From the NCBI GenBank assembly GCA_964016885.1, contig OZ024745.1, positions 1,922,001-1,986,000 on the forward strand: DNA of 64,000 nucleotides. The letters run 5' to 3'. A model generated the notes under the pieces. It was not told the origin of the DNA, made no database searches, and worked only from the letters and a program-made list of their open reading frames with translations. How positions within the stretch are numbered: position 1 is the stretch's first letter; each line of letters begins with the position of its first letter. Positions 35,791-36,214 of the stretch are shown in pieces. Source of the DNA: Eledone cirrhosa. Its lineage: Eukaryota. The position numbers and the translations under genes are program-made.

Positions 35791-35914
35791 TCTCTCTCTC
35801 TCTCTCTCTCTCTCTCTCTCTCTCTCTCTCTCTCTCTCTCTCTCTATATATATATATATATATATATATATATATATATATATATATATATATATATATA
35901 TATATATATATATA
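35791..35914. repeat. Compound (CT)n(TA)n microsatellite
   Basis: Direct reading. Confidence 0.97.
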
Positions 35915-36116
35915 GTGAAATAAAATAACAAGGACAATTGGTTACTCCTTCATTACGTTTATTGGTTGGTGACGCGCGTTTCGCCACTGATCAGCTCAAG
36001 GTTCGATCTGTATCGATTTGACCCGACTCTGTATCCGCGGCTCGTCAGACCCTTGCAATGGTACCAATAAACGTAATGAAGGAGTAACCAATCGTCCTTG
36101 TTATCCTTTCACTATA
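35911..36116. mobile_element. Hammerhead-containing cassette with ~55-bp inverted arms (35911-35966 / 36063-36116); putative non-autonomous Penelope pLTR or retrozyme-like element
   Basis: The arm ATAACAAGGACAATTGGTTACTCCTTCATTACGTTTATTGGT is reverse-complementary to ACCAATAAACGTAATGAAGGAGTAACCAATCGTCCTTGTTAT with 1 mismatch, plus outer TATAGTGAAA/TTTCACTATA. The cassette abuts (TA)n. Confidence 0.75.
35968..36051 (-). ncRNA. Minimal type I hammerhead ribozyme
   Basis: Minus strand reads GGU-CUGACGA-GCCGC-(49 nt)-GUGGC-GAAA-C-GCGC-GUC^ACC. Both core boxes are intact, stems I (GGU/ACC) and II (GCCGC/GUGGC) pair, stem III is minimal with a palindromic loop, and the cleavage triplet is GUC. Confidence 0.85.
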
Positions 36117-36214
36117 ATACACTCTGTCTAGCTCTACACCTCCACACTTAGTGAACCTAAACATCGAGTGCTCTCCCGGGTGAACCTACAGTAACTCCAA
36201 GTTACACTCACTGG

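Follow-up and report, generated by a model that had tools for sequence, protein, structure and literature searches.

The island at positions 35911-36214 of the analysed window (a stretch of 64,000 nt of Eledone cirrhosa DNA) is very probably an insertion, 5′-truncated and inverted, that an autonomous Penelope-like element (PLE) of Neptune type left in (TA)n, and its hairpin is likely to derive from joined cDNAs. That the island is a stub of an autonomous Penelope-like retroelement is almost certain; its sequence is that of a pseudo-LTR (pLTR) of a family that includes full-length copies. The island is known debris, a stub of a known retroelement architecture and not a new retrozyme, and the family may already be catalogued. 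The Neptune label is one that we assume from domain order and motifs.

Anatomy of the island and its hammerhead motif

The island is embedded in (TA)n target microsatellite on both sides (35845-35914 and 36215-36326). Its A arm (35915-36062, minus strand) is a 148-nt, 5′-truncated sense piece of the pLTR that contains the hammerhead and ends at site A (35915). The B arm is an oppositely oriented second pLTR 3′ end, of which part 1 (36063-36112, plus strand) forms the right arm of the inverted repeat and ends ~5 nt before reaching the cleavage site, and part 2 (36113-36214, plus strand) is a ~100-nt tail between sites A and B, with the conserved GAGUGCUC at 36166-36173. The arms meet head to head at GGT|ACC (36062|36063), a junction particular to this copy. 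The last TATA of the left microsatellite (35911-35914) matches the read-through of the parent at site A (TTTCAC|TATA), and ATAT in the right microsatellite matches that at site B (CCCTGG|ATAT). Between 35911-35966 (plus strand; the A arm 3′ end) and 36063-36116, 51 of 56 columns match, with one 2-nt gap and three mismatches. The initial annotation had described a near-perfect inverted repeat of ~55 bp around the motif, (TA)n on both sides and, as one possible reading, a pLTR piece plus an inverted tail; all three hold, the last in the form of an A arm and a tailed B arm, which makes the copy in the window an ordinary A+B pair.

On the minus strand, the hammerhead comprises the stem I 5′ strand GGU (36051-36049), the canonical core CUGACGA (36048-36042), a 5-bp stem II GCCGC/GUGGC (36041-36037/35987-35983), GAAA (35982-35979), C-GCGC-GUC (35978-35971), a predicted cut at 35971|35970 and the stem I 3′ strand ACC (35970-35968), with an AAUAAA (35963-35958) 7 nt past the predicted cut. 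The coordinates, the cut and the AAUAAA spacing given in the initial annotation are all confirmed. The whole motif (35968-36051) has the type I layout of conserved core and three helices at the sequence level; the earlier description as a minimal type I hammerhead was correct regarding the type and the palindromic helix III (ACGCGCGU) but not the size, as loop II spans 49 nt. The motif is not a chance occurrence, since a generic type I descriptor matched just once in the 10,650 nt of non-satellite window DNA, at this motif, and at least once in only 1 of 1,000 dinucleotide resamples. It is an ordinary pLTR motif, sharing with known hammerheads the CUGANGA/GAAA/UH core, a short stem I and a helix III that is small, palindromic and compatible with dimer formation, and differing from them in the loop II insertion, in a score under the Rfam cut-off and in the existence of derived subfamilies with U4C and U4C+A6U cores.

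A gathering-level Rfam scan of the window gave no hammerhead match, the sole match being tRNA-like (21867-21924, 32.1 bits; probably a tRNA-derived SINE head). In an E-value search, RF00163 reached 19.7 bits against a cut-off of 34, with the alignment placed on the wrong heptamer, CUGAUCA. This short alternative core (CUGAUCA...GAAA) was rejected, as its G8 is C and stem I cannot form. For the monomer, the hammerhead fold is predicted to be 8.4 kcal/mol less stable than the minimum-free-energy structure, with a stem II probability of ~0.08, and for the dimer an intermolecular 8-bp helix III is predicted at −14.7 kcal/mol. Model search and minus-strand folding, proposed in the initial annotation as a check, gave neither a gathering-level score nor a favoured monomer fold. 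Cleavage by the motif would probably require dimerisation or the help of protein. Because of the inverted repeat, the full minus-strand island folds as a long hairpin (z −13), whereas the loop by itself is unremarkable (z −1.2).

Most of the window is satellite (1-17762, 22551-30908, 32346-33782 and 38390-64000), in which (TGATGG)n is found together with repeats of 26/129 bp and 44/77 bp and with ~490 copies of a 52-bp repeat. Around the island (34601-35244 and 36547-37695) lies a different repeat family, the arms of which occur in tandem and inverted (369-nt arms at 97%); it ends in (TATG)n/(CATA)n and has a PLE-like layout.

The parent element and its relatives

The genome (3.0 Gb, 1,796 contigs) was searched for the island and for the endonuclease of its parent, yielding 3,029 and 506 first-look candidates, respectively; 40 of the former were scored. 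Exact patterns matched 573 and 1,446 times genome-wide, reversed controls giving 0, and the family comprises at least 1,446 end copies, which disposes of the concern that the sequence might be single-copy. In longer copies, the hammerhead is preceded upstream by a ~1-kb 3′UTR and then by a GIY-YIG-type frame. Among 20 loci picked on endonuclease DNA alone, 15 had a sense hammerhead in the ~2.5 kb fetched downstream, and in 9 of 20 loci picked by RT protein part or all of the pLTR/tail ran into an ORF start ~40 nt past the tail. Full-length copies have an upstream hammerhead as well, continuing via the ~100-nt tail, or leader, to an ATG ~40 nt after site B, which gives a parent layout of pLTR with hammerhead, tail, ATG, RT, GIY-YIG, ~1-kb 3′UTR and pLTR.

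The long copy L186 encodes an 858-aa ORF with YRDD, a Cys-rich linker, YIG (position 743) and CCHH residues (HCRLC at 806, NCRH at 833), of which we take the C-terminal part to be a GIY-YIG/CCHH motif. Its Cys linker reads CNC-x5-CPL-x3-C (708-723), a spacing that is not literally the CX2-5CxxC described in PMC8557442. Structural matches of the L186 model (pLDDT 79) are RTs, telomerases occupying ranks 2, 3, 7, 8 and 10 (five chains in the top 10), and atlas look-alikes of the ORF carry RVT_1/HTH_animal and GIY-YIG, the GIY-YIG being found on 31% of the members of one cluster. Pfam scans with RT/EN fragments and full ORFs returned no relevant family, a PDB sequence search with the ORF gave nothing significant, and the best named protein match was from Argonauta hians. 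The hammerhead pLTR is joined to an RT and GIY-YIG ORF, and the link to PLEs that had been suspected from the island, including linkage to PLE ORFs, is thereby established.

The architecture has the following in common with that described for EN+ Neptune-type PLEs (Craig et al. 2021, PMC8557442; Arkhipova et al. 2013, PMC3846280): a single ORF with RT and C-terminal GIY-YIG, a partial-tandem pLTR with a hammerhead, heavy 5′ truncation, an adjacent inverted 5′ copy, a tail at one end alone and a bias towards microsatellites. In these elements, however, the tail is 30-40 nt long and constitutes the ORF start, whereas in the island family it is ~100 nt long and forms a non-coding leader. Hammerheads in pLTRs have been described (PMC4209133), and PLEs have been reported from Octopus vulgaris in a paper whose main text makes no mention of ribozymes (PMC13282606). 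None of the papers listed by our literature search dealt with octopod PLE hammerheads, an A+B count or lineage-wide core loss.

In two sister families (~55% aa identity), helix III is likewise palindromic but of other sequence, the predicted cut is followed at 5-7 nt by an AAUAAA, the tail measures ~90-100 nt, and GAGUGCU, GCUCC and GAGCGCUU are present around site B. A young sister family (L235, L238 and L188; G000 C2), with copies 98-100% alike, an 894-aa open frame, a ~100-nt tail and an intact hammerhead (GAAA-UAUAUA-UA, stem I ACUGC/GCAGU), is a good candidate for an active element and for a cleavage control. In a third family (L223, L230, L240 and L241), the palindromic helix III reads ACAAUUGU, loop II is large and related, the tail is ~90 nt long, the motifs around B are the same, and the cores seem variable. 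The window itself contains a second Neptune-type PLE (18366 to ~21360, plus strand), whose ORF (18412-20478, 689 aa to the first stop) has YHDD, a Cys linker and a YVG endonuclease and is 47% identical to L186 over the RT part. It starts directly after a (TA)n run (18315-18365) with the post-B motif GCTCC...GTGCACTT and has no DNA match to the island family.

Core evolution, cleavage and the template

Ends and arms were counted in 116 insertions picked by hammerhead patterns and in a set of 138 formed by these and 22 further insertions picked by a downstream pattern. Duplicate loci were removed from both (4 from the 116-insertion count and 12 from the 138-insertion counts) as well as from the 5′ pile-up test (10), and L001-L030 were excluded from the unbiased counts because they had been selected for island likeness.

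Among the 173 arms that span the core, a sample tilted toward the canonical form by the selecting patterns, 112 were canonical, 18 U4C, 32 U4C+A6U and 11 other. Matched exact patterns, which favour young copies, gave 708 sites for CCGUCGA and 186 for CUGACGA, with 13 of 100 listed canonical matches falling in a single minisatellite (G000:C3:300827895-300829795) of 48-bp period derived from the hammerhead 5′ half. When an RT protein tree was rooted on an outgroup of five rows, all altered cores fell into one derived clade (97/93) in which U4C+A6U is nested (97/97), an order of core loss for which an AU test did not reject another root (p 0.079). The closest long copies, L186, L187 and L191 (96-97% to L186), are found at the tip of the altered-core clade; L186 and L187 have further changed cores, and L072 and L185 are labelled canonical with cores unread. 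Divergence of the pLTR is ~4% in each of the three subfamilies, which thus differ little in age by that measure. As the derived CCGUCGA lineage outnumbers the canonical core, hammerhead cleavage appears likely to be dispensable for transposition.

Copies read through well past the cut site in 89 of 100 listed ends, as judged by eye. Truncation exactly at the cleavage site was not enriched, being seen by eye in 2 of 100 listed rows, both with an identical flank, and stops at 1456-1475 occurred in 4 of 154 arms in a sample partly anchored across the cleavage site. A marked pile-up of 5′ ends was found upstream of the core, where 64 of the 84 arms passing reference position 1375 stop within 1340-1375, i.e. 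5-40 nt from the core, compared to 4 of 20 arms over the 72 nt that follow (Fisher p 5e-6; the limits of the pile-up are BLAST ends in AT-rich sequence). A TCATTT close to the pile-up is presumably initiator-like. The pile-up is most simply read as the mRNA being copied to its end through the 5′ pLTR (run-off), and we give about even chances to the 5′ end of the transcript being its cause, stalling or microhomology being possible as well. For Penelope of D. virilis, an internal promoter has been described in the corresponding region (PMC2377424).

The hammerhead could alternatively act as a processor that turns tandem transcripts into monomers and these into circles, the re-ligated circle serving as the template that gives the read-through. 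Such circles, as in the model of PMC4209133, would explain the read-through and the partial tandems equally well, the sister families have retained the core and a palindromic helix III despite differing sequences (ACGCGCGU, AUAUAUAU and ACAAUUGU), and the predicted energy of the intermolecular helix III is in its favour. A circle has no 5′ end, however, so the pile-up upstream of the core would be left unexplained, and the most numerous lineage carries U4C+A6U, when changes at U4 and A6 reduce the activity of other hammerheads (PMC3088659). We regard such a role as unlikely; it would bear on the function of the ribozyme and leave the identity of the island unaffected.

The initial annotation had favoured a new retrozyme or a non-autonomous family mobilised in trans, which is not supported: the sequence belongs to a family with an ORF, as its terminal repeat, and junction positions are distinct in 29 of the 30 best island look-alikes. 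The 300-bp hairpin is therefore not copied as a unit, and it was rejected as a fixed element. A short non-autonomous RNA (retrozyme- or SINE-like) made from solo pLTRs and mobilised in trans by the PLE might still produce most stubs, the island included: stubs far exceed long copies, as the first-look candidates illustrate, 93 of 116 insertions begin within 200 nt of site A, the sharp 5′ pile-up would suit a short RNA with a defined start, and PLE pLTRs can work in trans according to PMC3846280. This too is improbable, as the family has no fixed unit, a second same-strand hammerhead segment is found in just 3 of 138 loci, stub variants are mixed with ORF-bearing copies on the pLTR tree, and the 5′ pLTR of an ordinary mRNA explains the same lengths. 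Mobilisation of short pLTR transcripts in trans is not needed to explain the stubs. By definition, retrozymes consist of tandem units (bioRxiv 10.64898/2026.07.22.740005; PMC7229834), and head-to-tail hammerhead units were not found: the window has one motif, and the 3 of 138 loci were counted within ~3 kb. Nor was a fixed non-coding unit independent of the ORF found, the sequence being continuous with the 3′UTR and ORF. As described in the same two sources, non-LTR animal retrozymes share with the island family a type I hammerhead related to those of PLE pLTRs and a size range of 170-400 nt; the island family differs in having no head-to-tail array or fixed unit and in being directly continuous with a coding element.

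Paired ends and the insertion mechanism

Copies of the family end at one of two sites, A or B, ~100 nt apart, and at each of them the read-through of the parent has a 3-4-nt match to (TA)n. In the 116 insertions, the sense arm ended at A in 64 cases, at B in 49 and elsewhere in 3. Of 161 ends, 145 had a (TA)4 or (AT)4 no more than 14 nt away, bearing out the anticipated preference for (TA)n. The 138 insertions include 63 head-to-head pairs, of which 57 were A+B, 3 A+A, none B+B and 3 unclassified (binomial p 4e-12 for an earlier count of 48/51). When the A+A pairs were inspected by hand, one seemed real and two were ambiguous; the single B+B pair, L006, comes from the biased set selected for island likeness. 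Inverted arms vary in length, some being only a few tens of nt and others hundreds of nt long. The A+B pairing and the copy-specific junctions together indicate that the inverted repeat arises at insertion.

In 39 of the 57 A+B pairs, the A arm extends further 5′ than the B arm and the tail is found on B only, showing that neither arm was copied from the other in those pairs. We consider it probable from these patterns that priming is dual, with two cDNAs made from opposite cut strands. An RT-EN protein, whose counterpart in PAc is a predicted dimer, would bind the leader near the conserved GAGUGCU, GCUCC and GAGCGCUU and nick both strands of the (TA)n, with A being primed on one strand and B on the other. 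For most cDNAs, synthesis would then end by run-off at the RNA 5′ terminus, located 5-40 nt upstream of the core, leaving stubs of 150-280 bp, and the two cDNA 3′ ends would be joined head to head via microhomology or a short fill-in. Across three families, 8 of 11 copies are predicted to form a helix of GAGUGCU with GAGCGCUU, spanning B, with P >0.65; this helix has no covariation support because the motifs are nearly invariant. The full combination, in which a leader-anchored RT-EN dimer primes asymmetrically at two sites separated by 100 nt (A and B), the PLE transposes in vivo without cleavage and the hammerhead is carried along as a passenger, is put forward more tentatively, as somewhat less probable than not.

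A fold-back origin, as proposed for rotifer Penelope elements (PMC3846280), in which the inverted arm would result from self-priming of one cDNA or from an antisense RNA, could account for the 27 of 57 A+B junctions without gap or overlap, for stem I as a self-complementary sequence at the junction and for private changes common to both arms of a locus, but is highly improbable, as simple fold-back cannot produce the non-nested arms of the 39 pairs with a B-only tail, the window copy among them, and solo A (28) and solo B (31) copies are about equal in number. Arms within a locus diverge by 6.0%, compared to 9.4% between loci (38 pairs), which fits a shared template and also later gene conversion.

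Truncation, an inverted 5′ copy, a one-sided 30-40-bp tail and a microsatellite bias have been described for EN+ PLEs (PMC8557442; PMC3846280); for the present family, the pairing of one A with one B end has been counted (57/63). A close biochemical counterpart is PAc, a Poseidon element of Anolis carolinensis (Frangieh et al. 2024, PMC11167929), in which RT starts at two internal sites that delimit the tail, the target is AT-rich, and both strands are cleaved and extended; its templates are likewise uncut at the hammerhead, and cleavage by the latter was not required in vitro. The PAc starts are non-homologous to the target and lie inside the ORF, whereas A and B each have a 3-4-nt TA-type match and are positioned ~100 nt apart upstream of the ATG.

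The island alone matters little, being one of thousands of dead stubs, and its family bears on two questions. Concerning the origin of inverted, one-tailed PLE insertions, the near-strict A+B pairing and the non-nested arms favour two primings over fold-back. Concerning the role of the pLTR hammerhead, CUGACGA, CCGACGA and CCGUCGA form a natural series within one lineage which, next to the young sister family with an intact core, provides substrates for cleavage assays and an in vivo parallel to what Frangieh et al. found in vitro. If true, the out-amplification of the intact lineage by one that has lost U4 and A6 would constitute genomic evidence of cleavage-free PLE transposition in vivo.

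Further elements were observed near copies of the family. A short element (AACGAAGGAAATGTGG...) recurs, often as inverted pairs, in the same (TA)n runs in the flanks of L002, L026, L030, L042, L049, L051 and L055, and probably represents a further PLE family. Other type I hammerhead-like motifs recur in the flanks of L020, L053, L066, L076, L181 and L184, with the helix III regions GAAAGAACUU, GAAACUAGUU and GAAACGUU.
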